Shown here: piece by piece, positions 46,838 to 62,745 of the stretch | How the letters are laid out: every line of letters starts with the position of its first letter | Numbering within the stretch: position 1 is the stretch's first letter | NCBI GenBank assembly: GCA_022823775.1 | Contig: JAJEHI010000048.1 | Location: forward strand, 42,267-106,266 | Source of the DNA: Defluviicoccus sp. | GTDB taxonomy: Bacteria > Pseudomonadota > Alphaproteobacteria > MPNO01 | DNA length: 64,000 nt | Reading direction: 5' to 3' | The notes under the pieces: model-generated | The model's database searches: none | What the model saw: the letters and a program-made list of their open reading frames with translations, nothing else | What the model was told of the DNA's origin: nothing | Made by a program: the position numbers and the translations under genes

Positions 46838-48952
46838 TCAATAGTAGTAGCCGCCAACCAGCGCCGGGGCGGGTTCGTCCCGCTCTTCCGGAGACCCGCC
46901 GGTCCGGACCAGCCGGGCCGTGACGATCACCACCAGCTCGAGGTCCTCCGATCGTATCGAGCGATGCCCGAACAGCGGTCCCAGCAACGGGATGTCCTTG
47001 AACACCGGGAGGCCCGCCTCCCGCGTGTCGGACGCGTTGCGGAACAGCCCGCCTATCACGATCGAGTCTCCGTCGCCCACTTCGACCGTCGTCTCCGCGC
47101 GGCGCACGTTGATCACCGGGATATTGACGCCCACCACCTGGACCGCCTGGTTCAGCGACGGCTCCGACACTTCGGGCCTGACCTTCAGCACGATCCTGCC
47201 GGCGTCTATGACCGTGGGGACGAAGTCGAGCAGGACGCCGTATTTCTTGTATTCGAACAGGATGACCCCGTCCTCGAACCCGGTCGGCAGCGGGTATTCG
47301 CCACCCGAGAAGAACGACGCCGCCTCGCCCGACACGGCGGTGAGGTTGGGCCTGGCCAGCACGTTCGCCGAGCCGGCCCTGGCAAGCGCGTCGATCATGC
47401 CCGAGATGCGCGTGTCCTTCGTATGCCTGCCGAAGAAGAGACCGGGGGAGGGCTGACCGTCGACGAGTGACGGAGCGAAGGCGCCGATCGCGCTTCCCGC
47501 GACCGACGGGACGCTCGCCAGCCGGCCGATCCGGAAGCCGAACACGTTGTCGCCCGGGGTCCGGAATGCCTCCCAATTGATCCCGAGGTCCTCGCTGAGC
47601 GAGCGCTGGACCTCGGCGATCTGGACTTCAAGGCTCACCTGCTGCGCGCCGGCCACACGCAGTTCGGTTTCGACGACGGTGTCCTTCGGCAGAGCCGCCG
47701 CCGCGAGCCGGAGGGCGCGTTCGGCGAGAGCGGCGGAGGCGACATCGCCCGACAGCGCTATTCCCCGCGCGACCCGCCTCGCCCGTACGCCGCGCAGATC
47801 GGGCTCTCCGGCCAGGTTCGCACGAACGGGTTCGAGGTCGAGCATGACGGACACGATCCAGTCCCGCACCCGACCGTCCTCTCCGAGCACCGCGACGGAG
47901 GTTCTGCCGACGCTCTTGCCGACGATGTACAGCACGTCGGGCGATAGCAGCTGAACGTCCGCCACCTCGGGCGCCGCCACCAGCAGCGAGGTCGCGCTGG
48001 AATCGAGCCCGAGGCGCCTGCTCTGCCCCAGCGAAAGGGTCATCGTCGCCGGCAGGGGGACGCCCGGCGTTCGGTCCGCGGCCGCCTCCGCCTCCGGGAC
48101 CGGCGGCGCCTCCCGCTCCGTTCCGGGACCCTGCGGGGAGGGCCGTTCCGCAATGCGAAGCAGGGCGCCCGTGGACCCCGGCAGCGCCGCTTCGCGGGCC
48201 GCGGGGCCGTCCCCTTCCCGCGCCGGCAGACGCATCGCGAGGCTCGGATGGACCGCACGCGCCGCGGCCTGGCGCCGCCGCTCCCGCCGCGCTTCCTCGA
48301 TCAGATGCCACAGCGAAGAACCGTCCTCGCCCAGCCAGAAGGACGGATCGTGCCGCGCGTGAACCTCCGCCGCGCTCTCTTCCTTCCCGGCCGCCAGCAG
48401 CATGCGCACGAAATTCGCGGTGATCCCCGGATGGCCCGAAGACAGGCGGAGAGCCCGGCGGTATTCCGCCTCGGCCGTCTCGTAATCGCCTTCGAGGCTG
48501 GCGAGGACGCCGATGCCGTTGGCGACCCAGGCCGCCGAGGGCCCCCGTCCCGCCGATTCGCGCGCGCTCCCGAAGTGCCGCCGCGCGTCGTCCAGCGTGC
48601 CTTGGGCGAGCGCCGTCCGCCCCGCGCCGAGGAGCGCTTCCGCCTTGATGGCCGGCGCCTCCTCCGCCAGCGCCGCGGCCCCGAGGAAATAGTCCTTCGC
48701 GGCCGGCAGGTCGTTGTCGAGGGACGCGATATATGCCAGCCCGAGGAGCGGTTCGGGAGCCTCGTCGAAGCGTTCGGCCAGGGAGCGGTATAGCCTGCGG
48801 GCGACCGACGGCTGGCCCGCGGTAAAGGCGGCGGCCGCGACGGACAGGTTGTTTTCAAGAAGATCCTGGCGGCCGGCGGGATCGTCCGACGACGGGCCGG
48901 TCGCGCATGAGGCGACCGCCGCGACCGAGATGAAAACGGCAGCGGCGCGCAT
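46838..48952 (-). CDS. cpaC: CpaC/RcpA-type secretin fused to an N-terminal TadD-like TPR domain; lipoprotein signal
   Basis: Real start MRAAAVFISVAAVASC at 48952. The first ~270 aa are TPR-like. These are followed by the pilus-formation N-domain (LSLGQSRRLGLDSS...VLYIVGKSVGRTSV) and the secretin core (ARPNLTAVSGEAASFFSGGEYP...FKDIPLLGPLFG). Confidence 0.75.
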   Translation of the reverse strand: MRAAAVFISVAAVASCATGPSSDDPAGRQDLLENNLSVAAAAFTAGQPSVARRLYRSLAERFDEAPEPLLGLAYIASLDNDLPAAKDYFLGAAALAEEAPAIKAEALLGAGRTALAQGTLDDARRHFGSARESAGRGPSAAWVANGIGVLASLEGDYETAEAEYRRALRLSSGHPGITANFVRMLLAAGKEESAAEVHARHDPSFWLGEDGSSLWHLIEEARRERRRQAAARAVHPSLAMRLPAREGDGPAAREAALPGSTGALLRIAERPSPQGPGTEREAPPVPEAEAAADRTPGVPLPATMTLSLGQSRRLGLDSSATSLLVAAPEVADVQLLSPDVLYIVGKSVGRTSVAVLGEDGRVRDWIVSVMLDLEPVRANLAGEPDLRGVRARRVARGIALSGDVASAALAERALRLAAAALPKDTVVETELRVAGAQQVSLEVQIAEVQRSLSEDLGINWEAFRTPGDNVFGFRIGRLASVPSVAGSAIGAFAPSLVDGQPSPGLFFGRHTKDTRISGMIDALARAGSANVLARPNLTAVSGEAASFFSGGEYPLPTGFEDGVILFEYKKYGVLLDFVPTVIDAGRIVLKVRPEVSEPSLNQAVQVVGVNIPVINVRRAETTVEVGDGDSIVIGGLFRNASDTREAGLPVFKDIPLLGPLFGHRSIRSEDLELVVIVTARLVRTGGSPEERDEPAPALVGGYYY

Positions 48953-49254
48953 GCGCCGGACGAGATGTCGACATGGTTGCCGGATCACGAGCATTTCCAA
49001 TCCGGCCCCGTTGTCAGCGAACGAAGCACGACCGCTCCATCTTCCGTCAAGATTTCGAACCCGGGCGAAGAATGAACGCGGTTCCCGAATTCGATCCTAT
49101 CGATCCAGAGACCGCGAACCTGGGTGTATCCCCGCGATCCGGACGCTCGATCCGGCACCGCCGCAACCGGCGAACCCATAAGCGAACTTGGCAGAATATG
49201 CCTAACACGATATGAATTGTGAACAGAAGTGAGATATTTTGTCGCCCTCGCCCC

Positions 49255-49788: not shown

Positions 49789-50919
49789 ATGGCGGCGTCT
49801 TCCAAGGCTCACTATGCGCGCGGGTTCGCGGCCGACGCCCGGACCGAGCGGGCATTGCGCGCCGGACTTGCCGGCCGCGACGCGAAGGTCCAGCGAGGAC
49901 GCCTGGAAATCGCGCTCCGCACTCTGGCGGCCGAGCCCGCCTCCAGTCTGGTGTTCGTCGACCTCGACGGCAATTCGGACCCGGAAACCGCGGCCAGGCG
50001 ACTGACCGAAGTTTGCCCTTTCGAGACTGCGGTGGTCGCGATCGGTTCCACCGATTCGGCGCGGTTCGGCCACGCGCTCCTGCAACAGGGGATGGCGGAC
50101 TATCTGGTCAAGCCGCTGTCGGCCGCGGTCGTGCGCGAGGCGGTCGCCGCCCTCAGCGGGGAGGCGCCCGAGCATCTCTACGCGGGAGACGTCATCGCTT
50201 TCGCGGGAAGCCCCGGCAGCGGCGTCTCCACCCTGGTCGCCGCGGTCGCGCACGCCGCCGCCGCCGACGGCCGCACCGCTTCCGTCGTCGACCTCGACCC
50301 GGTTTGCGGCAAGCTCTCCGCGCGGCTCGGCGTCGAACCCGGGGACGGCCTGCGCCCGCTCCTTGCTTCGATCGGCGCCGGCGCGGCCGATGACCCGGAC
50401 CCTCATATCGACCCCGACAGGATCGACCGAATATCGACGCCGGCGGCTTCCGGCATTTCGCTGATCGCTTACCCGAAGGCCGAGGCGCCGCCGGAAAGCG
50501 CCGACGCGGCGGCGCTCTCCGCCCTCTTCAGGCATCTCGCCAACCGGACCCATCTCGTGCTGGCGACCGGGATGCCGGATCCCGAGACGCAGCTTCTGCT
50601 GATGCGGGACGCCGATGCTCGGGTTCTGGTCTACGAACCGACGATAGCGAGCGTCGGCGCCGTGGTGCGTCGGTTGGCGCGGCTCGGCCCCGACCGGCCC
50701 GCCACGCTGGTCCAGTGCTCCACGCGGGGTCGCCGTTACACGCTGTCCTCCGCCCATGTCCGCTACGCGTTCGGCGACCGGCGCCCGGACGTCGTGCTTC
50801 CCTTCGATCCGGCGCTCCACGCGGCCGCCACCGGCAAGCCATCGGGCCGCCCGGGAAAGGCCTACCGCAAGGCGCTGCGCCAGGCGATAGAGCTGGTCGG
50901 ACAAGATCATCGTTCGTGA
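49789..50919 (+). CDS. cpaE: CpaE/TadZ-family pilus assembly protein (receiver-like N-domain + MinD/ParA-like domain), paralogue 1
   Basis: The receiver-like part is LVFVDLDG...ADYLVKPL. The deviant Walker A, IAFAGSPGSGVSTLVAA, lacks the conserved lysines. Confidence 0.7.
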   Translation: MAASSKAHYARGFAADARTERALRAGLAGRDAKVQRGRLEIALRTLAAEPASSLVFVDLDGNSDPETAARRLTEVCPFETAVVAIGSTDSARFGHALLQQGMADYLVKPLSAAVVREAVAALSGEAPEHLYAGDVIAFAGSPGSGVSTLVAAVAHAAAADGRTASVVDLDPVCGKLSARLGVEPGDGLRPLLASIGAGAADDPDPHIDPDRIDRISTPAASGISLIAYPKAEAPPESADAAALSALFRHLANRTHLVLATGMPDPETQLLLMRDADARVLVYEPTIASVGAVVRRLARLGPDRPATLVQCSTRGRRYTLSSAHVRYAFGDRRPDVVLPFDPALHAAATGKPSGRPGKAYRKALRQAIELVGQDHRS

Positions 50920-51306: not shown

Positions 51307-51849
51307 ATGCGGAGCGGGTGCGTGAACCGGATCGTCAGACATGGCTGGCTTGCAGCGCGGGACTTCTGGCGCGCCCGGCGCGCGGCGGTCGCGCTGGAAA
51401 CGGCGATCGCGGTGCCGGTTCTCCTCTTCGCGTTCGCGGGCCTGATGGAAATCGTGCACTCGGCCTATGTCAGCGACAACATGAACCGCGCCGCCCGCGC
51501 CGCCGCCCGAGCGATCGCGATCGCGCCGGACAGCGCGGCGGGTAGCGGCGCGCTCGACAGCGTCGCCTGCACGGCGATCCGGCGCGAACTCAAGCTGGTC
51601 GAGAGTTTCGACTGCGGCGCGAGCTGGACGCTCACGGTCGACACGGATCTCACTCCCGCCGCCTTGCTGGCCGGCGGAGACGGGGGCGACGGCGAGGCGG
51701 ACGGGGACATGGTGGTCGTGCGGATCGCCTGGAGCCGGGAGCCCTGGGAGATCGGCCAGCTCATCGCCTCGCTCGACGAGGGAGACGGCGAGCCCGACCG
51801 CCGGATCGCGGTCGGCGTCGCCCGCCGGGAACCGGTGGCGGGGAGCTGA
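51307..51849 (+). CDS. tadE: TadE/TadF-like pseudopilin-type protein
   Basis: The N-terminal TadE motif is AAVALETAIAVPVLLFAFAGLMEI; 180 aa. Confidence 0.65.
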   Translation: MRSGCVNRIVRHGWLAARDFWRARRAAVALETAIAVPVLLFAFAGLMEIVHSAYVSDNMNRAARAAARAIAIAPDSAAGSGALDSVACTAIRRELKLVESFDCGASWTLTVDTDLTPAALLAGGDGGDGEADGDMVVVRIAWSREPWEIGQLIASLDEGDGEPDRRIAVGVARREPVAGS

Positions 51850-51856
51850 TCCGCCC

Positions 51857-52528
51857 GTGACCGCGCTCCCGTCCCTCCCGCTCCGGTCCTTCGTCCGCGA
51901 CACGCGCGCCCTGGCCGGTATCGAGCTCGCGTTCGGATCCGTGGCGCTCGCGACGATCGCCACGCTGTGCTTCGACCTCTACTCGCTGGTCGGCGTCACC
52001 AGCGCCAGCGCGCGTAGCGCCGTCGCCATGGCGGAGTACGTTTCGCGCGACAGCGCCCCGGACGGGGATCAGGTGACGGCGCTGGGCCGGTTCCTGCACC
52101 GGGAGGAGTTCGGCGCCCCCGCCGATCTGGTCTACGTGATCTCCGCCGTCCGGCGTCCGCCGGGGGACGAGCCCGCGGAAGTCCTGTGGGTCGACGACAC
52201 GATCCGGTTCGGCGACTCCGCGACGACGGCGGCCCTCGCCGGCGAGTGCGCCCGCCGCGGCAGCGCGGGCTGGCGGGCCGGGCTGCTTGGCGCGCCGGGC
52301 TCCCTCGGCATGAGCGAGGGGGAGGTGGCGATCGTGGCCGAGGTCTGCGCGCGTCCCATGCGCGAGGGCATGCTTTCCGGCCGCCTGGTCACCGGAGACA
52401 TCTACCGCGTTCATATCCTGCCGTCCCGCGATCCCCGGCAGGCGCCAGAGCCGCCAGTCCATTCGACCTCGGCGGAGGACACGGACAGGACGGGCGCCGG
52501 TCCGCCGCACAAGGTTTCGATTTCATGA
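51857..52528 (+). CDS. tadF: TadE/TadF-like protein (second copy)
   Basis: GTG start; N-terminal LAGIELAFGSVALATIATLCFDLYS; 223 aa. Confidence 0.6.
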   Translation: MTALPSLPLRSFVRDTRALAGIELAFGSVALATIATLCFDLYSLVGVTSASARSAVAMAEYVSRDSAPDGDQVTALGRFLHREEFGAPADLVYVISAVRRPPGDEPAEVLWVDDTIRFGDSATTAALAGECARRGSAGWRAGLLGAPGSLGMSEGEVAIVAEVCARPMREGMLSGRLVTGDIYRVHILPSRDPRQAPEPPVHSTSAEDTDRTGAGPPHKVSIS

Positions 52529-52682: not shown

Positions 52683-52922
52683 ATGAATACTCGATTTGCA
52701 ACCCGCCTGTTCAGGCGCTTCGCGCGCGACAACAAGGCCGTCTCCGCCCTCGAATACGCCATCCTGGTGGGTGTCATCACCGCCGGCGTCGGCGCAGCCG
52801 TCGCGGCGTTCACGGACCAGATCGACGACATGATCGATCAAATCGCCACCAACGTGACCGCCAACGAGGCCAACATCGGCACCGGTGGCGCCGGCGGTGG
52901 CGGCGGCGACGCCGCCGAGTGA
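52683..52922 (+). CDS. flp: Flp/Fap-family type IVb pilin
   Basis: 79 aa. The Flp motif ...DNKAVSALEYAILVGVITAGVGAAV has G/A before the EY; the C-terminus is a Gly-rich acidic tail TGGAGGGGGDAAE. Confidence 0.75.
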   Translation: MNTRFATRLFRRFARDNKAVSALEYAILVGVITAGVGAAVAAFTDQIDDMIDQIATNVTANEANIGTGGAGGGGGDAAE

Positions 52923-53110: not shown

Positions 53111-54612
53111 ATGACTCTCGACGCTTCTCCGAACGGCCGCGATCGTCCGGCCGGGCCTCCCCCGGAACGCGCGCCCGACTTCGACCTCGATTTCGACGTC
53201 GATTTCGAGGCCCTGCTGCGGGCCGGGCTTCCGGACGATCCGGGCGAGGGCGAGGACGCCACCGCCGCCGACCTGGCGAGCGCTCTCTCCGCCGGCCCCT
53301 TGGACGATCCATCTCCGCCGCCGGCCGATCCGGACCTGCCCGACCTCGCGGACCTTTCCGGCATCGCGGCGGACCTGCCGGGTCCGGGCGCCGCGATCGA
53401 CGCCGGCAGCGATGAGGACGCGGACGACACGGCTTCCGAGTCGACGCCCGAAGGTCCCGCCGCCGCGCTCGCCTTCGCGGCCGATGCGGAGACCGAGAAC
53501 GCCCTGCGCGAGGGTCTGATGCATTTCGAAGGGGCGATGCCGGACTGCGACGATCCCCAGGTTTGGCCGGGCGGCCTGCGAGCGGCCGTCGCGGCGCTCG
53601 CCGACGGGCATTCCTCCGGTCTCGTCATCGTCGATATCGACGGTATCGCCTACCCGTCGGGCGCCATTCACGAGCTTGCCGAGGTCTGCGAGATCGGAAC
53701 CGTCGTCATCGCGGTCGGCTCGAACGGCACCGCCCGTTTCAGCCGCGAAATATTGCTTGCCGGGGTCAGCGACTATCTGGTGAAGCCGCTCACCCCGCAG
53801 ACGGTGAGGGAGGCGACACGCCGCGCGGCCGCGTCCCGGGCGGACGCCCCCGCGAGGGGATGCGTCGCCGGGTTCGCCGGCACCGGCGGCAGCGGCGCGA
53901 CCACCCTGGCGGTGGCGACCGCGCTCCATGCGGCGGAGACCGGCCGTTACGTTTCTGTGCTCGATCTGAACCGGACCGTCCCCGTCGCGGCGCTTCTGCT
54001 CGACGTGCAGCCGGCGGCCGGGCTGGAACAGGTCATCGAGGTCGCCGGCGACGCGCCGCTCGAGGCAAACACGCTGGACGGCGTCCGGGCGCAGCGCTCC
54101 GAGCGGGTATCGATCTACGCCTATCGCTGGTCTCCCGTGCTGCCCCCGGCGCCGTCGGGCCCGGCGCTCGCCCGCCTGCTGGGCGAACTGAAGAGCCGGT
54201 CCCAGCTCGTGCTCGTCGACGGGATCGACGATCCGCCGACCCAATTCGCCCTGCTGTCCGAGGTCGATGTCCCCGTTCTGGTGGCGGAACCGACGGCGGA
54301 CGGCGCAACCCGCGCGGCCCGTATGCTGGAGCTTCTCCCCGGCGACGCCCCGGCCGTCGCGGTGAAGAACCACACGCGCGCGTTCCGGCCGGACGCGGGG
54401 GCGCGGGCGCTCGTCGACGCCGGGATGGAGGCCGCGCCGGACATCCTGGTTCTGTACCTTCCGTCGCTGCCGGAAATCGCCGACCGGGGCTGGCCGCGCG
54501 GCAGGCTTCCCCGCCGCTTGCGCAAGCCCGTCGCGAGCCTTCTCGAACGGATCCTCGCATCGGCCCGCCTCGCCCGTGTCGTCCCGGACGGGCGCCTCGC
54601 GGAGGCGGCGTG

Positions 54613-54613
<1 letters not shown>
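53111..54613 (+). CDS. cpaE: CpaE/TadZ-family protein, paralogue 2, with a ~140-aa acidic/Pro-rich N-terminal extension
   Basis: The receiver-like region is LVIVDIDG...SDYLVKPL. The MinD-like domain has the Walker A-like GFAGTGGSGATTLAVA, again without lysine. Confidence 0.7.
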
Positions 54614-56006
<1,393 letters not shown>

Positions 56007-56010
<4 letters not shown>

Positions 56011-56966
56011 CGCACTTCCTGATCGTCGTGGGCACGGCCCTGGTGGCGACGCTGCCCGGGGTCGCCTTCCTGCTGCTGCTGTGGAACCGCGACCGGCGGT
56101 TGCGCGGCCGGCTTCAGGGCGCGTCCGCTTCGCATATCGACGAGGCGGTCTCCGAGGACGATGCGACCGAGGCCATCGTCTTTCGCTCCTCGGCCGGATC
56201 GCGGTCGGCTCGCCTCCGGCGCGCGATCGAGAGCCGGTATCCCCTGCTCGACGCCCGGCGGGCGGTTCCGCGCGCGGTTCTCGCGGGCGGCGCGGCGGCG
56301 GCCGGCCTGTGGGTTTCGATGTGGTTCCTGAAGATCCCCTCCGGCTGGTGGACGATGCCCCTCGTCGGGTTGGGCGGCGTGGGCGGCATCTGGTACGCGC
56401 TGTCGTGGTTTCACTCGCGGCAGGCGACCGAGTTCACCCGCCAGTTCCCCGAAGTCATCGACCAGATCGTGCGGCTATCCGCGGCGGGGCTGCCCGCGCT
56501 TGAGGCGATCCCTGTCGCCGCCGAAGACGCCCGGGCGCCCGTCAAGCCGGTGCTGAACGCCGTCTGCGACGGGCTTAGCGGCGGGCTCGATCCCGACACC
56601 GCTCTTCGAACTGTCGCCACCCGCGTCCGCCTCGCGGACTTCACCTTGTTCGCCGCGGTGATACTGCTGCAGCGCCGCGCCGGCGGCGGTATCTCCGCCG
56701 CGTTCGCCACCCTCTCCCGCACGCTTCGCGATCGTCGCAACACCGCGCTGAAGGCGCAGACATCCACCGCGCAGACCCGCCTGACCCTTATGGTGCTGTC
56801 CGTGATGCCGGTGGTGATGCTCAGCATCCAGAAGTTCATCTCGCCCCAATCCGCCGCGATCCTCTTCGAGACCGAACGGGGGACGACCCTCCTGCATTGG
56901 GGCGTCGGCCTGATCGTCGCCGGCCTTCTGGTCGCGAAGGCTATCGCTTCGCGCGTCGAGCAATAG
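56007..56966 (+). CDS. tadB: TadB (T2SS-F-domain inner-membrane platform protein)
   Basis: GTG start overlapping the cpaF stop (GTGA); 319 aa with a T2SSF domain. Confidence 0.8.
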
Positions 56967-56983
56967 GGAAGGGCGGGCCTCTC

Positions 56984-57955
56984 ATGCAGAACGCCTTCAT
57001 ACCGGTCGCCGGACTCGTCCTGGGCGCCGCCTACGTGCTGCTTCTCGCGCCGCTGATTATCCGGGAAACGCGGCGGGCGCAGCAAATGGACAGGCGGTTG
57101 ACCGCGTTGCGCGATTCCCCGTTCGGCTACGCCGCCGGACACGCGGCCCGCGACGGCGGCCGGGGCAAGGCCCTGATCAGGGCGCTCGGCCTGACGGCCA
57201 TGCGTGTGGCGTCGATGCTGGTCCCGATCGGCGCGGCCGAGCGCGAGAAACTCACCCGCATGCTCCGCGCGGGCGGCTTCGGGCAGCACGAAGCGCTCTC
57301 CGTTTTCCTCTCCGCGAAGCTCGGCGGCGCGTTCCTCCTCGCCATCGGCGCCGGGCTCTGGGCGACCTCTTCGGAGACGGTCGGACAGCACGCGTTTCTC
57401 GCCCTGTTCGCCGCGCTGGCGGGCTTCGTGATCGGCGGTGTCATCCCGGAATACGTGCTGCGTGCGCTGGTGGCCCGAAGGCTGCAACGGATGACCGCGG
57501 TCCTGCCCGACGCGCTGGACATGCTGGTGATGTGCCTCGAATCCGGCCTGACGGCGGAACGGGGAATCCTGACGGTCGCCGACACGCTGGCGCCCATCGA
57601 GCCCAATCTCGCCAGGGAGTTCCAGCAGATCGAGGCGGAGCTGCGGGTCGCGTCGGACCGCCGCGCGGCGCTCACCGAGTATTACCGGCGCACGGAGATC
57701 GACGGTCTGCGCGACCTCGTGATGGCGCTCATACAGGGCGACCGGTACGGCACCCCGCTGTCCCAGTCGATGAAGAACATCGCGGCCGACGAACGGATGC
57801 AAAAGGCGGCGCGCATCGCGACCCAGGCCGAGCGCCTGCCGGTCCTGATGACCCTGCCGATGATCATTCTCGTGGTTCCCGGAACCATGCTCCTGGTGGC
57901 GGGCCCCGCCGTTCTGGGCGCGCTTACCGGGCTGGCAAAAATGAGTGGCGGATAG
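56984..57955 (+). CDS. tadC: TadC (T2SS-F-domain inner-membrane platform protein)
   Basis: Start MQNAFIPVAGLVLGAAYVLL; 323 aa with a T2SSF domain. Confidence 0.8.
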   Translation: MQNAFIPVAGLVLGAAYVLLLAPLIIRETRRAQQMDRRLTALRDSPFGYAAGHAARDGGRGKALIRALGLTAMRVASMLVPIGAAEREKLTRMLRAGGFGQHEALSVFLSAKLGGAFLLAIGAGLWATSSETVGQHAFLALFAALAGFVIGGVIPEYVLRALVARRLQRMTAVLPDALDMLVMCLESGLTAERGILTVADTLAPIEPNLAREFQQIEAELRVASDRRAALTEYYRRTEIDGLRDLVMALIQGDRYGTPLSQSMKNIAADERMQKAARIATQAERLPVLMTLPMIILVVPGTMLLVAGPAVLGALTGLAKMSGG

Positions 57956-57956
57956 G

Positions 57957-58943
57957 ATGTACAAGACGCGCGGTCGCTCTTCCGCCGGACGGGCGGTTTC
58001 CCTGCTTGCCACTTTGGCCGCGGGCCTCACGTGGCTCGCCTGCGGCGATCTCCGCGCCGAGGAGCCGATCCTGCCGATCCCCGAAAATGTCGACGTCGAT
58101 CCGGCCAAGGTCGAGCTGGGCCGAAAGCTGTTCCACGACCCGATATTGTCGAAGGACGGCACGATCTCCTGCGCTAGCTGCCACGATCTGGCGGGCGGCG
58201 GCGATGACGGCCGCAAGATTTCGCTCGGCGTCGACGACAAGCCGGGAATGGTCAACTCGCCCACCGTGTTCAACGCGGGCATGAACTTCAAGCAGTTCTG
58301 GGACGGCCGCGCGAGCACGCTCGAGCATCAGATCGACGGTCCGGTGCAAACCGCCTTCGAGATGGGCAGTCTCTGGCCGGACGTCGTCGCCAAGCTCTAC
58401 CGCGACGGCGCCTATCCCAAGCTCTTCAAGAAGAGCTATCCCGACGGGATCAATCGCAAGAACGTCAAAAACGTCATCGCCGAGTTCGTAAGGTCCCTCA
58501 ACACTCCCAACAGCCGCTTCGACCGGTGGCTGAAAGGCGACAAGAACGCTCTCAACGCGCAGGAAAAGCGCGGCTACGCATTGTTCAAGGACTATGGCTG
58601 CTCGTCGTGCCACCAGGGCGCGAACGTCGGCGGGAACATGTTCCAGGTGTTCGGCGTCCTGAACGACTACTTCAAGAAACGCGGCAACATCACGGAAGCC
58701 GATCTGGGCCGCTACAACATCACCGGAAACGAAGAAGACCGGCACGCCTTCAAGGTTCCCAGCCTGCGGATGGCGGCGATGACGGCACCCTATCTGCATG
58801 ACGGAAACGCGGCCACGCTCCGCGACGCCGTCGACGCGATGTTCGAATTTCAACTGGGGCGCGAAGCCCCCGACAAGGACAAGGAAGCCATCGTGGCGTT
58901 CATCGAGACGCTGGTGGGCGAATCCAAGGAGCTATCGAAATGA
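57957..58943 (+). CDS. ccpA: Di-haem cytochrome c peroxidase (CcpA/MauG family), periplasmic
   Basis: Two CxxCH haem motifs (CASCHD, CSSCHQG), a signal peptide, and the conserved FKVPSLRMAAMTAPYLHDG. The track begins at a GTG at 57945; the ATG at 57957 is preferred. Confidence 0.85.
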   Translation: MYKTRGRSSAGRAVSLLATLAAGLTWLACGDLRAEEPILPIPENVDVDPAKVELGRKLFHDPILSKDGTISCASCHDLAGGGDDGRKISLGVDDKPGMVNSPTVFNAGMNFKQFWDGRASTLEHQIDGPVQTAFEMGSLWPDVVAKLYRDGAYPKLFKKSYPDGINRKNVKNVIAEFVRSLNTPNSRFDRWLKGDKNALNAQEKRGYALFKDYGCSSCHQGANVGGNMFQVFGVLNDYFKKRGNITEADLGRYNITGNEEDRHAFKVPSLRMAAMTAPYLHDGNAATLRDAVDAMFEFQLGREAPDKDKEAIVAFIETLVGESKELSK

Positions 58944-60733
58944 GGTCTGGCGCAGTCATTCTCGGCATTGCCGTCTCCGCCGTCCTGCTGGCCGTCGCGG
59001 GCGGTCTTTATGTGCTGGCGGGCAATAACAGCGGAGACGGTTATCGCAAGGCGATCGATCTCGTGCGGCAGATCCAGCTGCTGTCGTCGGAATGGAGCAT
59101 GGAAGTCACGCGCGTGAAATCCGATCAGTTCGCCGATTTCGACTCGCTGGCCGCCTTCCTGCCGCGCATGGCGCGGCTGAAGGACGAGCTTGCCGACACG
59201 GCCCAGCGCATCCCCCAACTTCCCGACCGGATCGCCAGCGACATGCAGGCCTATCTCAACGCGATCGAAGCGAAGGAAGAGCGCATAGAACGCTTCAAGA
59301 CGGGCTACGCCGTGGTGCGCAACTCCAACCGCTACCTGCCGCTGGCCGCGACCAACGTCCTGCAGCAGGCGCAGAACTCGAGGGACGACGCGCTGGTCCG
59401 GAATATTTCGAGCCTGATCCGGGATGTGAACCTCTATCTCGCCACGCCGACGGACACGTCCCAGTCCCGGCTGACCGCCGAGATCAAGAAGCTCCGCGAA
59501 TCCAGCGTCTCCTATCCGCCTCCGCTCGCCAACGCGCTGGCCAATCTGTTCTCCCACGCCGAGGTGCTTGTGGCCAAGCAGGGGCCGACGGAGGAGCTGT
59601 TCAAGAGGGCCACGTCCGGCGAAGTCTCCGACCTGACGGAGCAGCTGAGCAGCAATCTGCAGTTCGAGCTCGGCAAGAAGGTGCTCCTCGCGACCTATTA
59701 CGACCGGGGCATTCTCGTGGTGTTCGCCGCGCTGATCCTGTTCTGGATCCTGCTCGCGCTGCAGCAGCGGATTCGCGGCGGCTCCGCCGTGACCCGGGTC
59801 GCTTCCCGCCCCTCGGCGATCGAGATCGCACCCGCGCCCGCCGGCGCCGGGGAGGCCGTCGTCGCGGCGGAGGAGACGCATCCGGCGCCGGTGCGGCCCG
59901 CGCCCGTCGAGGCGGAAGCCATCCGTCTGCCCGACGAACCCGAATCCCTGCCCGTCGCGGCGGCGGCTTCGTCCCCGGAACCGAGCGCCGAATCCATCCT
60001 GATGCAAGGGTTCGTCGTCAAATGCGTGGCCGGAATCATGGCCGCCTCGGCCGACGAAATCGCCGGCCGCATGGAGTATCTGCGCCGAACCCAGAACAGG
60101 ATCCAGGACGCCTTCCGAAACAGCGACGGTATCGCGGAAACGTCCGATGGAACGGATGTCGACGAAGAGATCGAAACGATCTCCGCCATCGCGCTGAGCG
60201 TCCGCCAGAGGATGAACGGCATCGCCGATCTCGCGAAGCGGCTCGACTCCTATTCCAACGGTCACGCCAACGGGGCGGACCGCGGAATGATCGACCTCAA
60301 CGCCTGTGTCGAGAACGTCATCGAGACCGCCGGTGCCGCGAACCGGGCGACGGTCGTGAGGAACCTGGGCGACATCCCGGAGATATTCGCCTCCAGGACC
60401 GAATTTCAGCTGCTCCTGTCGGAACTGATCGACAACTCGATGGTCGCGGTCGAGGGACTCGACGACAGAAAGGGCATCATCAAGATCGATACCGCGCGGA
60501 AGAACGACGAAATCCTGATCACCGTCATCGACAATGGCGACGGTATCGCCCCCGACAAGCGCGCGAACATCTTCAAGCCGTTCTACACGTCCCGCGACGG
60601 GGCGATGGGCATCGGCCTGACCCTCGCCGGTCACCTGGTCAAGAAATACGAGGGGGTCATCAAGATCAATTCGTTGCCCGGCCAGGGGACGGTGGCGCGC
60701 GTCACGCTGCCGGCCGGCGTGTCGGGGGCGTAG
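58940..60733 (+). CDS. Membrane sensor histidine-kinase-like protein (two TM helices, periplasmic domain, C-terminal HATPase_c); no canonical H-box recognised
   Basis: N-box LLLSELIDNSMVA, G1 DNGDGI, F FKPFYT, G2 GMGIGL. TM1 AVILGIAVSAVLLAVAGGLYV and TM2 ILVVFAALILFWILLAL. The ATG overlaps the ccp stop. Confidence 0.65.
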   Translation: MRSGAVILGIAVSAVLLAVAGGLYVLAGNNSGDGYRKAIDLVRQIQLLSSEWSMEVTRVKSDQFADFDSLAAFLPRMARLKDELADTAQRIPQLPDRIASDMQAYLNAIEAKEERIERFKTGYAVVRNSNRYLPLAATNVLQQAQNSRDDALVRNISSLIRDVNLYLATPTDTSQSRLTAEIKKLRESSVSYPPPLANALANLFSHAEVLVAKQGPTEELFKRATSGEVSDLTEQLSSNLQFELGKKVLLATYYDRGILVVFAALILFWILLALQQRIRGGSAVTRVASRPSAIEIAPAPAGAGEAVVAAEETHPAPVRPAPVEAEAIRLPDEPESLPVAAAASSPEPSAESILMQGFVVKCVAGIMAASADEIAGRMEYLRRTQNRIQDAFRNSDGIAETSDGTDVDEEIETISAIALSVRQRMNGIADLAKRLDSYSNGHANGADRGMIDLNACVENVIETAGAANRATVVRNLGDIPEIFASRTEFQLLLSELIDNSMVAVEGLDDRKGIIKIDTARKNDEILITVIDNGDGIAPDKRANIFKPFYTSRDGAMGIGLTLAGHLVKKYEGVIKINSLPGQGTVARVTLPAGVSGA

Positions 60734-60857
60734 CGAGACCGGAAGCGGGCGGGGAGCGGGATCGCCCCGACCCGTCGATAGACGCGTTACCAGCAACCTT
60801 TCAGCGAGTCGGAACCATGGAAAACCGTTACGACAACCCAATCCCGAGGGCGTTTCG

Positions 60858-62177
60858 ATGACTTCGCGGGGAGATCGAAACAGCAGCCTGCGGATGCAGC
60901 TGGTGTCCAACGCGCTCCTGAGCGTCGCGCTGCCGATCCTGATCGTCGGCGGATTGACCTTCTTTCTGCTCGCGTATCATCTCGACATCATCGAGACGAG
61001 CTTCGCGCGGAGCCGGGATGCGGTAACCAACGACATCGCGCGGACCGACCTCGTGTCGCGGGCGACAACCACCGCGAGCCAGATCGATACTTTCCTGGTC
61101 AGCCGTATCACCGAAGCCAAGGCCTGGGCGACGTCGAAGGCCGTCGTCGAGGCCGCCCGGTCGGCCGGCGCCAGGCACGCGGCCGAGGGGTTCGTCAAGA
61201 CCCCCGCCGCCGAGGTCGAAAGGAGATTCCGCATCGAAAAGAGCCTGGGCCTCTGGCCGGAAGCCGATTCCTTCCTGCGCCAGCAGGTCGCGGCGTCGCC
61301 TTACTTCGCGGAACTCTTCTTTACCGACAGCAACGGTTTCAACGTCGCGCTCACCAACCCCACCAGCGATTTCATCCAGTCCGACGAGGAATGGTGGAAG
61401 CGAGCCTGGAGCCAGGGGATTTCCGTGGGCGAGGTCGAGTACGACGACTCCGCCGGGGTCTGGTCCGTGGAAATCTCGGTCCGGATAGACAACCCGACCG
61501 GGAAAAAGGCGCTCGGCGTCATGAAGACGGTGCTCGCCATCGAGCCCATTCAGAACATCGCCGACAGGGCGGCCCAGTCCGTTCCGGGCGGCCGCGTCCA
61601 GGTCGCGACGGGGCGCGGCGCGCTGATCGCCGAGACGGCCTCCGGCCACGCCCGGGAACGAATTATGAATGGCGAAGTCAACGTGCAGGAACAGGGCGAA
61701 CCGTCGGTGCGGGCCGGTTTCGGCGGTGAACAGACGGGGTTCGCCACCGACCGGGAATGGCTCACGGGGTACGCCCGGACCGGCGGCCGCGAGACCTATG
61801 CTTCCGCCGTCGGCCGGTTCGCGGGTTTCGACTGGATCGTGATCGTCCAGAAACCGATCGCCGCCATCCACGAGCCGATCACGGCGCTTCGCGGTATCGA
61901 GGACGCGCTGCGCGATTGGCGCCTCATTCTCGCGCTGGCCCTGGGCGGCATGGCGTTGCTGAGTTCGGTGCTGGCGATTTCCCTCGCCGTCGGGGCCGCC
62001 CGGCGTTACGCGAACGCCCTGGGCGCGGTCACCGAGATGGCCGAACGTTCGGCCCGGGGCGAACGGGTCAGTCCCGCGGTCATCCGCAACCCCCAGGAGA
62101 TCGTTCGCGTGAACGACGCCGTCCATCGCCTGGTTCAGGTGTTCGCCGGCGTCCGGGAGCGACCGCGAGCGACGTAG
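60858..62177 (+). CDS. Cache-domain sensor with two TM helices and a C-terminal HAMP domain, lacking any output domain
   Basis: TM1 LLSVALPILIVGGLTFFLLA, a ~300-aa periplasmic Cache-like region, TM2 LILALALGGMALLSSVLAISLAV, then HAMP-like NALGAVTEMAERSARGERVSPAVIRNPQEIVRVNDAVHRLVQVF, followed by the stop. Confidence 0.6.
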   Translation: MTSRGDRNSSLRMQLVSNALLSVALPILIVGGLTFFLLAYHLDIIETSFARSRDAVTNDIARTDLVSRATTTASQIDTFLVSRITEAKAWATSKAVVEAARSAGARHAAEGFVKTPAAEVERRFRIEKSLGLWPEADSFLRQQVAASPYFAELFFTDSNGFNVALTNPTSDFIQSDEEWWKRAWSQGISVGEVEYDDSAGVWSVEISVRIDNPTGKKALGVMKTVLAIEPIQNIADRAAQSVPGGRVQVATGRGALIAETASGHARERIMNGEVNVQEQGEPSVRAGFGGEQTGFATDREWLTGYARTGGRETYASAVGRFAGFDWIVIVQKPIAAIHEPITALRGIEDALRDWRLILALALGGMALLSSVLAISLAVGAARRYANALGAVTEMAERSARGERVSPAVIRNPQEIVRVNDAVHRLVQVFAGVRERPRAT

Positions 62178-62262: not shown

Positions 62263-62745
62263 GTGGAGAGCCGTTCGATGGCGAACGCAACCGCATGGAT
62301 CGTCTGGCTGGCGGGGTGGGCCGCATGCGGCCTGTTCGTCGCCGCCGCGGTCAGCGACCTTCGGACCCGCCAGGTGTCGAACGCGATACCCCTGCTGCTG
62401 CTCGGGCTTTTCGCGGTGTACGCGGCGGCCGGCGCGGTCCGGCCCGCAACGTCGCTCTGGCAGCATCTGGCGATAGGCGCCGTACTGCTCGCCGCCGGTT
62501 TCGCGCTCTACACGACCGGTCGCTTCGGCGGGGCCGATGCGAAGCTGATCGCCGTGGCGGGGTTGTGGGCCGGTCCGAACGACCTGGCGGCGTTCCTGTT
62601 CGTTCTGGGCGGGTGCGCTTTGTTGCTGAGCCTGTATGCCTTGCTGCCTCACGCGGGGGCGCGGCGTCTGCGGTCGGAACTTCCCTTCGCCCTGGCGATC
62701 GCGCCGCCGAGCCTGGCGGTCATCGTCCCGCGCGCGCTGCCATGA
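62263..62745 (+). CDS. cpaA: Prepilin peptidase CpaA/TadV (A24 family)
   Basis: 160 aa polytopic membrane protein; the catalytic Asp contexts are AAVSDLRTRQVSN and GGADAKL. Confidence 0.75.
   Translation: MESRSMANATAWIVWLAGWAACGLFVAAAVSDLRTRQVSNAIPLLLLGLFAVYAAAGAVRPATSLWQHLAIGAVLLAAGFALYTTGRFGGADAKLIAVAGLWAGPNDLAAFLFVLGGCALLLSLYALLPHAGARRLRSELPFALAIAPPSLAVIVPRALP

Follow-up and report, generated by a model that had tools for sequence, protein, structure and literature searches.

The tad/Flp pilus operon in the window (the whole 64,000-nucleotide stretch of Defluviicoccus sp. DNA that was analysed) contains three genes between tadC and cpaA, encoding a cytochrome c peroxidase (CCP), a membrane protein with DAHL and HATPase_c domains, and a dCache protein. 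Upstream are the T2SSF platform genes tadB and tadC; downstream are the Peptidase_A24 gene cpaA and RcpC/cpaB.

49789..50919, + strand: cpaE/tadZ-like ATPase 1, a second copy (TIGR03815 CpaE-homologue match of 41.1 bits, under the 154-bit cut-off; motif DYLVKPL in the translation)
53111..54613, + strand: cpaE/tadZ-like ATPase 2 (N-terminal receiver-like domain; matches the solved CpaE receiver-like domains 4myr and 4n0p, E 4e-9)
56981..57955, + strand: tadC, T2SSF platform protein (PF00482, E 1.4e-15; gene call)
57957..58943, + strand: ccp, periplasmic di-haem CCP (PF03150, E 1.7e-56)
58940..60733, + strand: DAHL-domain membrane pseudo-histidine kinase, 597 aa (Pfam, alignments, AlphaFold, Foldseek)
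59042..59662, + strand: its periplasmic DAHL domain, residues 35-241 (PF19443, 101.9 bits; cut-off 38 bits)
59780..60004, + strand: its low-complexity Pro/Ala-rich linker, residues 281-355 (pLDDT, alignment gaps)
59987..60262, + strand: its DHp-like helical hairpin, residues 350-441, without phospho-acceptor His (alignments, AlphaFold model, Foldseek)
60398..60715, + strand: its HATPase_c (CA) domain (PF02518, E 3.3e-19; invariant alignment columns)
60858..62177, + strand: dCache-TM-HAMP-like membrane protein, 439 aa (AlphaFold model, Foldseek; PF02743 at 28.9 bits, under the 45-bit cut-off)
62263..62745, + strand: cpaA prepilin peptidase, the downstream neighbour (PF01478, E 6e-15)

A single base separates the tadC stop codon (TAG, 57953-57955) from the ccp ATG in the sequence from 57920 to 57990, and the ccp stop overlaps the start of the DAHL gene as ATGA at 58940-58943, bearing out the gene positions and tight junctions of the preliminary description. 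Gaps of 124 nt and about 85 nt precede the dCache gene and cpaA, respectively. Transcripts showing an independent promoter and terminator had been named as grounds against an embedded module; at the level of sequence, neither gap contains terminator-like or promoter-like sites or Rfam matches. The tight junctions and the lack of terminator-like sites fit co-transcription with the Tad genes. All three genes have the same GC3 as the genes around them, so the module was not inserted recently.

The ccp product (328 aa from the ATG at 57957, the start chosen by gene callers) begins with a Sec signal peptide and is a di-haem CCP, as first described. It shares with the periplasmic CCP of N. europaea (PDB 1iqc, E 3e-73) and the periplasmic enzyme of PDB 9qdt (E 1.5e-88) the two CxxCH haem motifs, the Trp between the haems, Gln and Glu as catalytic residues, the Met ligand and a Ca-site Asn. 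Val occupies the distal His position of the peroxidatic haem, as it does in 9qdt. The N-terminus of 9qdt ('Probable cytochrome c peroxidase'), presumably a membrane-anchored tri-haem enzyme of the E. coli YhjA type to judge by name and length, is about 120 residues longer. Every catalytic or haem-binding residue checked is kept in all 89 DAHL-linked CCPs. The distal His by which classical enzymes block their active haem is missing from every one of them, and 88 have Met rather than Tyr as ligand of the electron-transfer haem. In contrast to 1iqc and 9qdt, CCPs of this clade have their genes immediately upstream of one for a DAHL sensor, in 78 of the 79 genome loci; the exceptional locus begins at the DAHL gene.

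A MauG-like enzyme modifying a periplasmic substrate was raised at the outset as an alternative. This reading, widened to MbnH-like enzymes and with oxidative modification of the Flp pilin or a pseudopilin as an example, is very improbable. The CCP_MauG superfamily does contain such enzymes, the gene is located among pilin-processing genes, and the MbnH and MauG models are the best partial NCBIfam matches, but both matches are far below cut-off (165 versus 363 bits and 156 versus 444 bits), and the clade also occurs in 30 loci without Tad genes. Matches to solved CCPs have E values of 1e-60 to 1e-88, compared to about 1e-20 for MauG; because of this difference and the Met ligand, the window CCP is, by its residues, a catalytically intact di-haem peroxidase type and not MauG-like.

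The second gene product consists of TM1, an all-helical periplasmic DAHL domain, TM2, a linker, a His-less DHp-like hairpin and an intact HATPase_c domain. The DAHL domain is better conserved than the cytoplasmic half and bears a clade signature (DFD, EERIERFK..A..RNSxRYLP and the invariant His206). The linker, about 75 residues here and predicted to be disordered (pLDDT < 36 in the AlphaFold model), is as short as tens of residues in some homologues and as long as roughly 550 in others; homologues of 769-1036 aa carry DAHL N-terminally and HATPase_c at the very C-terminal end. The N, G1 (DNGDGI), F (FKPFYTS) and G2 (GMGIGL) boxes are intact, and Foldseek matches the DHp-CA module to ZraS, YycG, CckA, HK853 and DivL. 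The hairpin reads VAGIMAASADEIAGRMEYLRR in the window protein and VAGVAHEINTPLGY in true DAHL kinases; across 76 aligned orthologues, the cytoplasmic part, including the DHp H-box, has no conserved His. Thus the kinase-like protein of the preliminary description retains its two TM helices and its HATPase_c domain, but lacks the phospho-acceptor, and its sensor domain is DAHL. To judge from its sequence, it cannot act as a classical histidine kinase, because the H-box His is missing in the orthologues, response regulator genes are absent within 10 kb, and past TM2 lies the disordered linker, across which it is hard to picture a classical transmembrane signal reaching the DHp-CA module. The Caulobacter pseudokinase DivL likewise has a DHp-CA fold without phospho-acceptor His, and the natural reading of this analogy is a role through protein contacts rather than phosphotransfer. 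DivL differs in having Tyr at the His position and PAS sensor domains, with neither a periplasmic haem partner nor a disordered tether.

Genuine DAHL histidine kinases are encoded in uncharacterised operons of ccp, kinase and response regulator in metagenome-assembled genomes of Thiolapillus, Reinekea, Thiotrichales and Thiolinea. All 14 such metagenome loci have ccp upstream and none has Tad genes; their CCPs are 54-74% identical to the window CCP, and the regulator follows the kinase wherever the contig reaches beyond it. The CCP clade, the DAHL signature and the gene order are shared with the window, whereas the H-box His, a short linker and the regulator are kept only in these operons, which lie outside Tad loci. 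The regulator is composed of two receiver-like domains (REC and REC-like) with no DNA-binding domain, which argues against a system that merely regulates ccp transcription; its best match in the window is only a single 41-residue stretch (E 3.6e-4). A Thiolinea locus with part of the DAHL signature has the same ccp-kinase-regulator order, and more distant DAHL kinases without the signature (L099, L100 and L101) have no ccp. The co-conservation of CCP and DAHL domain is strict and clade-specific.

Control of tad transcription by an ordinary two-component sensor, through a phosphorelay to an unlinked response regulator, is very unlikely: the DHp-CA fold is present and related proteins are true kinases with regulators, but the 76 orthologues have no conserved cytoplasmic His, the window has no regulator gene within 10 kb of the module, and even the canonical regulator is without a DNA-binding domain. 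Two-component systems are known in Tad loci: PprA-PprB, which adjoins the flp-tad-rcp locus of P. aeruginosa, acts on transcription through a functional kinase and a regulator that binds DNA. The window module resembles PprAB in being a signalling module encoded with Tad/Flp pilus genes, and differs in that it lacks a phospho-acceptor His and a regulator and is partnered by a peroxidase.

The CCP + DAHL pair was surveyed in 79 genome loci of Alpha- and Gammaproteobacteria, Binatia and Thermodesulfobacteriota, and all loci in the comparison derive from metagenome-assembled genomes, with no carrier that is in culture or open to genetics among those identified. The commonest junction between the two genes is the ATGA overlap (38 loci). 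The order tadB-tadC-ccp-DAHL/HATPase-(dCache)-cpaA is repeated in relatives at 50-85% identity, and the arrangement is thus far more than chance. The most conserved parts of the module are the CCP and the periplasmic DAHL domain; CCP identity is 66-89% in cases with 35-40% for the whole DAHL protein. A co-occurrence search of the kind proposed in the preliminary description located the pair within Tad clusters in 58 of the 79 loci, in at least three distant lineages. It occupies two positions there: Alpha- and Gammaproteobacteria have the order tadC-ccp-HK-cpaA, and the order in Binatia and Thermodesulfobacteriota is TPR gene-ccp-HK-tadE. The adjacency is conserved, not a chance insertion.

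Horizontal spread could have brought the pair beside Tad genes as a hitch-hiker, carried by an island that is mobile or often transferred, leaving the adjacency functionally meaningless. CCP identity of 66-70% between phyla is compatible with such spread, several genomes have two or three copies, and locus L004 is surrounded by transposases. However, the linkage is held at two positions in differently ordered Tad clusters, the junctions with Tad genes are no longer than 1 nt, GC3 is like that of host genes, and the pair is embedded among Tad genes in 26 of 26 alphaproteobacterial and 18 of 19 Binatia loci. This reading is already largely refuted by the two-position linkage and the locus counts, and has the slimmest of chances. 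The pair is not Tad-specific, and thus has a function independent of pili too, since 16 long gammaproteobacterial loci and all the true-kinase operons are without Tad genes. Many of the bacteria carrying the pair are seemingly sponge-associated.

The third gene is less constant. The genes had first been described as a triad, but the conserved unit is the pair: only 16 of the 79 loci (13 alphaproteobacterial and three gammaproteobacterial) contain the dCache gene, a lineage-specific third member, and an unrelated gene of about 390 aa replaces it in Pseudomonadales and Azotimanducaceae. The Cache assignment is upheld by the AlphaFold model (pLDDT 81.7), which in Foldseek resembles the dCache sensor domains of McpB, PctD, CtaA, PctA and DctB in the PDB. 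For HAMP, also proposed, Pfam gives no match in the window protein; a HAMP-like region is suggested by a pair of helices that follow TM2 in the model and by a PF00672 match in relative P0239. The protein has no output domain, and almost all its listed relatives are likewise proteins of about 430-480 aa without one.

The explanation favoured here, with a probability of roughly 0.5, is that CCP and DAHL protein constitute a periplasmic sensing unit, and that the window contains a pseudokinase derivative controlling the Tad pilus through protein contacts. The core unit would pair the soluble di-haem CCP with a membrane protein through the all-helical DAHL domain of the latter, a partner dedicated to the CCP, binding between them being suggested by gene linkage. 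In its canonical form the unit would feed a two-component system; on this reading the window form has lost the phospho-acceptor His and the response regulator, gained the long disordered tether from TM2 to the DHp-CA module, and been built into the Tad/Flp operon alongside an output-less dCache-HAMP co-receptor. The CCP, as periplasmic co-sensor, would react with periplasmic H2O2 or report the redox state of its own haems; peroxide is the presumed signal, and another could serve. The DAHL domain would read the state of the CCP, and the tethered ATP-binding DHp-CA module, in the role of pseudokinase or scaffold, may act on Tad components in the cytoplasm, tying pilus assembly to peroxide/redox cues. 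A peroxide/redox input into pilus biogenesis is a reasonable inference. Both CpaE/TadZ-like ATPases are candidate partners, with their receiver-like domains as the best candidate targets; the guess that ATPase 2 may dock the His-less DHp domain is drawn from its receiver-like fold.

A much less probable explanation is that the DAHL protein serves the CCP, as membrane anchor or as regulator of a respiratory or detoxifying enzyme, and that placement among Tad genes co-expresses peroxide protection with attachment. The CCP is catalytically complete by residues, its lack of the extra N-terminal residues of 9qdt leaves room for a separate anchor, and the long flexible linker speaks against classical signalling. 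Yet a plain anchor needs neither a conserved HATPase_c domain with intact boxes nor the complete HisKA kinase and response regulator that the canonical form has, and the DAHL protein has no haem-binding CxxCH in its DAHL domain and only two TM helices, with no obvious quinol site.

As the preliminary description had supposed, no such Tad system or CCP-DAHL module was found in the literature searched; if the sensing-unit explanation is true, the pair would be an undescribed bacterial route linking peroxide/redox cues to surface attachment. In TorT-TorS and LuxP-LuxQ, sensor kinases read a soluble periplasmic partner that is encoded alongside and strictly co-conserved, and the periplasmic sensor domain of TorS is all-helical, as is DAHL. 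The window pair, by gene linkage, similarly combines a soluble periplasmic protein with a membrane sensor, but its partner is a redox enzyme instead of a solute-binding protein and its kinase is His-less. Separate haem proteins encoded beside a kinase are its sensors in H-NOX/HnoK and NosP/NahK; the adjoining haem-protein and kinase genes are paralleled in the window, whereas those partners are cytoplasmic gas sensors with b-type haem and the window partner is a periplasmic c-type di-haem peroxidase.

The triad lies in a Tad/Flp pilus cluster, of which the region covers the 3' half; the genome has approximately 70% G+C. The cluster includes genes for the Flp pilin, TadE-like pseudopilins, CpaE/TadZ, CpaF, TadB, TadC, a prepilin peptidase, RcpC/CpaB and a secretin, arranged in the window as follows:

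46838-49000, minus strand, TPR-secretin (Secretin and T2SS-T3SS_pil_N domains)
49789-50919, plus strand, cpaE-like 1, a CpaE/TadZ-like ATPase of 376 aa with a 'DYLVKPL' motif
51307-51849, plus strand, tadE-like
51857-52528, plus strand, tadE-like
52683-52922, plus strand, flp
53111-54613, plus strand, cpaE-like 2, a CpaE/TadZ-like ATPase of 500 aa with a 'DYLVKPL' motif
about 54610-56010, plus strand, cpaF
about 56007-56966, plus strand, tadB
about 56981-57955, plus strand, tadC
57957-58943, plus strand, ccp (gene 1), CCP_MauG family (PF03150, E 1.7e-56)
58940-60733, plus strand, gene 2, encoding DAHL (PF19443, 101.9 bits; cut-off 38) and HATPase_c (PF02518, E 3.3e-19) domains
60858-62177, plus strand, dCache gene (gene 3; dCache_1 28.9 bits, below the cut-off of 45)
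62263-62745, plus strand, cpaA
62784-63998 and past the window end, plus strand, duplicated cpaB/rcpC (13845-15605 of L084, the source contig)

The preliminary description had placed three genes between tadC and cpaA and had noted an overlap of the ccp stop codon with the kinase start; both points are confirmed by domain matches, coordinates and reading of the sequence, and gene calls made independently for the source contig (ENA ERZ23491513, scaffold_122, 170 kb) give the same gene picture. A single base separates the tadC stop codon from the ATG of ccp, and the end of ccp and the start of gene 2 share the sequence ATGA. No terminator-like or promoter-like site was found by sequence scanning in the gaps before gene 3 (124 nt) and before cpaA (approximately 85 nt), which is consistent with an operon; counts of predicted promoters and terminators are at background level, and no Rfam family was matched anywhere across the region. 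A single transcript through the triad would fit this arrangement. The G+C content of the triad (0.61-0.66 over 58000-61500) is lower than the approximately 0.71 of the flanking Tad genes, a dip confined to codon positions 1 and 2 and attributable to amino-acid composition. Recent horizontal insertion, proposed from this dip, was rejected on the basis of a GC3 of 0.83-0.84, like that of the neighbours.

To assess the neighbourhood in other genomes, one genome per species was scanned, yielding 79 loci, all in metagenome-assembled genomes (MAGs), with clade labels taken from record titles and neighbours found by tblastn with the window proteins. In 78 of these loci the DAHL gene is directly preceded by ccp, and the sequence of the remaining locus starts with the DAHL gene itself. 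Two or more Tad genes are present within 10 kb in 58 of the 79: all 26 loci of Alphaproteobacteria, 18 of 19 of Binatia (the other is a 2.2-kb contig), the only locus of Thermodesulfobacteriota, and 13 of 33 of Gammaproteobacteria. In Alpha- and Gammaproteobacteria the order is tadB-tadC-ccp-HK-(dCache)-cpaA, and the loci of Binatia and Thermodesulfobacteriota have TPR gene-ccp-HK-tadE-tadE...flp...secretin-cpaE-cpaF-tadB-tadC. Retention of the linkage despite such rearrangement is good evidence that the ccp-HK pair is functionally tied to Tad. The co-occurrence check called for in the preliminary description came out in favour of a conserved adjacency, for the pair rather than the triad. The rival view, that the pair merely hitch-hikes with Tad genes, is contradicted by linkage at two cluster positions, by the tight junctions and by a GC3 equal to that of the neighbours. 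The ATGA overlap is the commonest ccp/HK junction (38 loci), large negative values having been set aside as artefacts of over-extended kinase reading frames in high-G+C loci. In Pseudomonadales/Azotimanducaceae the neighbours of the ccp-DAHL pair are unrelated to it, among them ileS, the gene of a TRAP-transporter binding protein and a sulfatase gene. The CCPs are 66-89% identical to that of the window everywhere, and identity of the DAHL proteins falls to 35-40%. The carriers are mainly uncultured Alpha- and Gammaproteobacteria and Binatia, many of them apparently sponge symbionts, as judged by bin names only.

Some MAGs possess two or three separate ccp-DAHL copies, usually each in its own Tad cluster (L005/L012, L007/L010, L009/L018, L028/L032/L064, L065/L069 and L070/L076), and three loci have additional ccp or DAHL copies in tandem (L022, L059 and L081). 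In L004 (1-3457, 12138-15545) a stretch of transposase genes (DDE_Tnp_1, IS21 IstB) truncates the Tad cluster immediately behind the DAHL gene, and a displaced fragment of the dCache gene is located 10 kb away on the opposite strand. The Binatia loci give a tblastn match to approximately 30% of the window TPR-secretin protein a short way upstream of ccp, which is read as a candidate separate TPR-like gene.

The solved structures closest to the window CCP are di-haem peroxidases: 9qdt (E 1.5e-88), Nitrosomonas europaea 1iqc (3e-73) and Shewanella 3o5c (6e-68). An alignment of 89 CCPs encoded next to DAHL genes was used for a census of functional residues. Both CxxCH haem c motifs are present in the window CCP and in all 89, as are the catalytic Gln, the catalytic Glu and the Asn of the Ca site, and 88 have the Trp between the haems and the Met that serves the electron-transfer haem as sixth ligand. 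The distal His of the peroxidatic haem, characteristic of the classical, reductive-activation type, occurs in none of the 89; its position is occupied by Ile, Val or Met throughout, and by Val in both the window CCP and 9qdt. This absence marks a bCCP subtype and is compatible with PF03150 membership. The N-termini are Sec signal peptides that end directly before a conserved 'EEPI.PIP' motif. The window CCP is thus a soluble enzyme of the periplasm whose peroxidatic haem is unblocked, and it is not MauG-like. Conservation is high, with 145 of 332 columns at least 95% conserved from Alphaproteobacteria to Binatia.

The possibility, raised in the preliminary description, of a MauG-like enzyme that modifies a periplasmic substrate has been abandoned: the NCBIfam MauG/MbnH models TIGR03791 and TIGR04039 score 156 and 165 (cut-offs 444 and 363), the position of the MauG-type Tyr axial ligand is occupied by Met, and the match to MauG in the PDB is only about E 1e-20. 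If the modified substrates were pilins, the 30 loci without Tad genes would also contradict it. No NCBIfam model reached its cut-off for any of the three triad proteins. The CCPs of Binatia (L040:9709-9969, L069:9742-9969) have a C-terminal tail of approximately 90 residues, of low complexity and rich in Lys, Arg and Gly, that the proteobacterial enzymes lack.

The AlphaFold model of the gene 2 product predicts the following parts:

residues 3-27, first transmembrane helix (TM1)
residues 31-250, all-helical periplasmic domain (pLDDT 80-92)
to about residue 280, second transmembrane helix (TM2)
residues 281-355, Pro/Ala-rich disordered stretch (pLDDT below 36)
residues 350-393 and 407-441, DHp-like helical hairpin (modest pLDDT, 50-72)
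residues 449-591, CA domain

With Foldseek, approximately 250 columns of this model align to the DHp-CA cores of ZraS, YycG, CckA, HK853 and DivL. The N, G1, F and G2 boxes of HATPase_c are invariant in an alignment of 21 orthologues. However, Pfam finds no HisKA match, and no conserved cytoplasmic His exists among those 21 orthologues or in a larger set of 76, the sole invariant His being the periplasmic His206. Where true DAHL kinases read 'VAGVAHEINTPLGY' (AHEINTPLGY) at the H-box, the window protein reads 'VAGIMAASADEIAGR'. Nor is a PF00072 response regulator gene present within 10 kb of the triad. The product of gene 2 is thus best classed, from its residues, as a pseudokinase: of the kinase-like character first ascribed to it, the HATPase_c domain with intact boxes and the DHp hairpin remain, and the phospho-acceptor His and a cognate response regulator do not. 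Classical two-component transcriptional control of the pilus genes is contradicted by the same two absences.

The periplasmic DAHL domain is better conserved than the cytoplasmic half of the protein, which is unusual for sensors. In some homologues, of 769-1036 aa, a linker of up to roughly 550 residues separates an N-terminal DAHL from a HATPase_c at the very end of the chain. The His-less proteins P0286 (1036 aa), P0294 (927 aa), P0283 and P0275 have DAHL at approximately residues 35-255, HATPase_c at the extreme C-terminus, and roughly 420-670 residues without a recognised domain in between. On annotated plasmids, tblastn with the window kinase gave only generic HATPase matches covering at most 40% of the query.

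Used by itself as the query, the DAHL domain found only 493 of 1.84 billion cluster representatives at E <= 1e-3, and the family is therefore small. Among the 90 long proteins from the best 150 DAHL matches, 15 have an H-box. In these true kinases the linker is short and the DAHL signature is that of the window protein (DFD, KEExIERFKS..A..RNSxRYLPLA, SHAxVL); NCBI-named carriers include Thiolapillus, Reinekea, Thiotrichales and Thiolinea, and a Thiolinea locus has the order ccp-DAHL HK-RR. A metagenome scan with true-kinase DAHL domains yielded 14 loci, all with ccp directly upstream, encoding CCPs 54-74% identical to that of the window, and none with Tad genes. A response regulator of approximately 310 aa is encoded directly downstream of the true kinase wherever the sequence reaches that far. 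Pfam confirms one receiver domain in it; the C-terminal half looks, by eye, like a second, degenerate receiver ('...YRFLCKP...'), and no DNA-binding or enzymatic output domain was found (L086:7864-8799, L093:7804-8739, L095:4768-5694). The best match of this regulator in the window is a single 41-residue hit (E 3.6e-4), and 84 loci gave no match at E <= 1e-3. In three DAHL kinases that are more remote, the signature is missing, and their loci have a regulator gene but no ccp, which rules out a ccp linkage common to all DAHL proteins; the linkage is therefore specific to one DAHL clade, following the conserved periplasmic residues.

In the model of the gene 3 product (pLDDT 81.7), TM1 is followed by two alpha/beta modules and by a long helix that passes through TM2, after which come two more helices; the model matches the dCache receptors McpB, PctD, CtaA, PctA and DctB (Foldseek E 1e-9 to 1e-13). 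It is predicted on this basis to be a dCache-fold receptor protein with a double PAS-like periplasmic fold. Motifs for amine and amino-acid binding, relevant to the ligand class of a dCache protein, are shown in PMC10589655. The protein ends after the two HAMP-like helices that follow TM2, which have no match to PF00672 (one relative, P0239, has PF00672 on record), and no signalling output domain (MCPsignal, kinase, GGDEF or similar) is found in it or among the 120 relatives listed, nearly all of about 430-480 aa. A dCache gene is present in 16 of the 79 loci (13 Alpha, 3 Gamma). In 23 loci of Pseudomonadales/Azotimanducaceae, another conserved gene takes third place after ccp and the DAHL gene (e.g. 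L033:11674-12870; also L031, L036, L039, L047 and L062). Its product of approximately 390 aa begins with a TM helix, continues with a globular region and ends in a coiled coil rich in Glu, Arg and Gln. It was rejected as a dCache counterpart, having no similarity to the window protein (E 0.37), and Pfam was uninformative, with one weak sub-threshold coiled-coil match in one of three proteins tested.

From the gene anatomy and co-conservation, we infer everything mechanistic that follows. On the simplest reading of the gene linkage, the CCP would serve this DAHL clade as a partner or co-sensor in the periplasm, and the complete, unblocked active site makes peroxide or the redox state of the CCP haems the obvious candidate signal. 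The same partner-protein logic is known from TorT-TorS and LuxP-LuxQ; here the partner would be a redox enzyme. If the DAHL protein were instead an anchor or regulator of a detoxifying CCP, the N-terminal region that the window CCP lacks relative to 9qdt would be accounted for, but the conserved ATP-binding domain and the canonical kinase-regulator form would be left unexplained. With the CCP as co-sensor, the canonical output would be a phosphorelay to the REC-REC regulator, which would have to act through protein contacts. On the same reading, in the window lineage loss of the His, the change of the linker into a long flexible tether and loss of the regulator coincide with recruitment into Tad operons. 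The most plausible role for the His-less DHp-CA module would then be that of a pseudokinase or scaffold, in the manner of DivL. Receiver folds are natural docking partners of DHp domains, and the module might, speculatively, dock on the receiver-like N-domains of the two CpaE/TadZ-like ATPases; that of cpaE-like 2 matches the solved CpaE domains 4myr and 4n0p. The dCache/HAMP-like protein could bring in a small-molecule input through membrane pairing with the DAHL protein.

We put at about one in four the chance that CCP-DAHL is a dedicated periplasmic H2O2 receptor, whose pseudokinase version in host-associated bacteria wires host- or neighbour-derived peroxide to Tad pilus assembly or retraction via the CpaE/TadZ receiver-like domains. 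The catalytic cycle of the enzyme would be read out by the membrane sensor, a peroxidase-relay logic comparable to yeast Gpx3-Yap1, except that the CCP-DAHL version would span the bacterial inner membrane. To our knowledge, the bacterial peroxide sensors described to date (OxyR and PerR, for instance) work in the cytoplasm; if true, the readout of a periplasmic peroxidase by a membrane sensor would be a different sensing principle. The strict clade-specific linkage offers ccp as a concrete candidate partner for the DAHL domain. We know of no upstream partner for the receiver-like domain of CpaE/TadZ, and the His-less DHp module, encoded in its operon, is an obvious candidate for that role. The CCP-DAHL module could also be relevant to the way in which oxidative cues from a host are linked to attachment in symbionts, and is a clear natural case of a two-component kinase becoming a pseudokinase upon recruitment into the operon of a machine.

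The bCCP, the histidine kinase-like pseudokinase, the dCache receptor and the Tad pilus are all of known kinds; their combination and strict coupling appear undescribed. The literature searched describes no CCP-coupled sensor, no ligand or partner of DAHL and no such module in Tad loci. It likewise gave nothing relevant on CCP in connection with Tad pili, on pseudokinases of pilus systems or on the Tad pili of sponge symbionts; reports on a Myxococcus CCP SNP and the Kil system and on the Leptospira PerR regulon are unrelated.

The Tad components of the window have several features of their own. The protein encoded by cpaE-like 2 (53111-54613) has an acidic, Pro-rich N-terminal extension of approximately 120 residues, and both CpaE/TadZ-like copies are kept in most related alphaproteobacterial loci. 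In the product of 46838-49000 (minus strand), a TPR region is fused N-terminally to the secretin, and its gene is transcribed divergently from the remaining cluster. The Flp prepilin (52683-52922) reads '...RDNKAVSALEYAILVG...', with Ala or Lys rather than the usual Gly at position -1 before xxxxEY, which suggests that the prepilin peptidase site is atypical. An internal duplication gives CpaB/RcpC two SAF + RcpC units within 586 aa; it is followed beyond the window by a 650-aa protein without a Pfam domain and then by a protein with TPR and SPOR domains.
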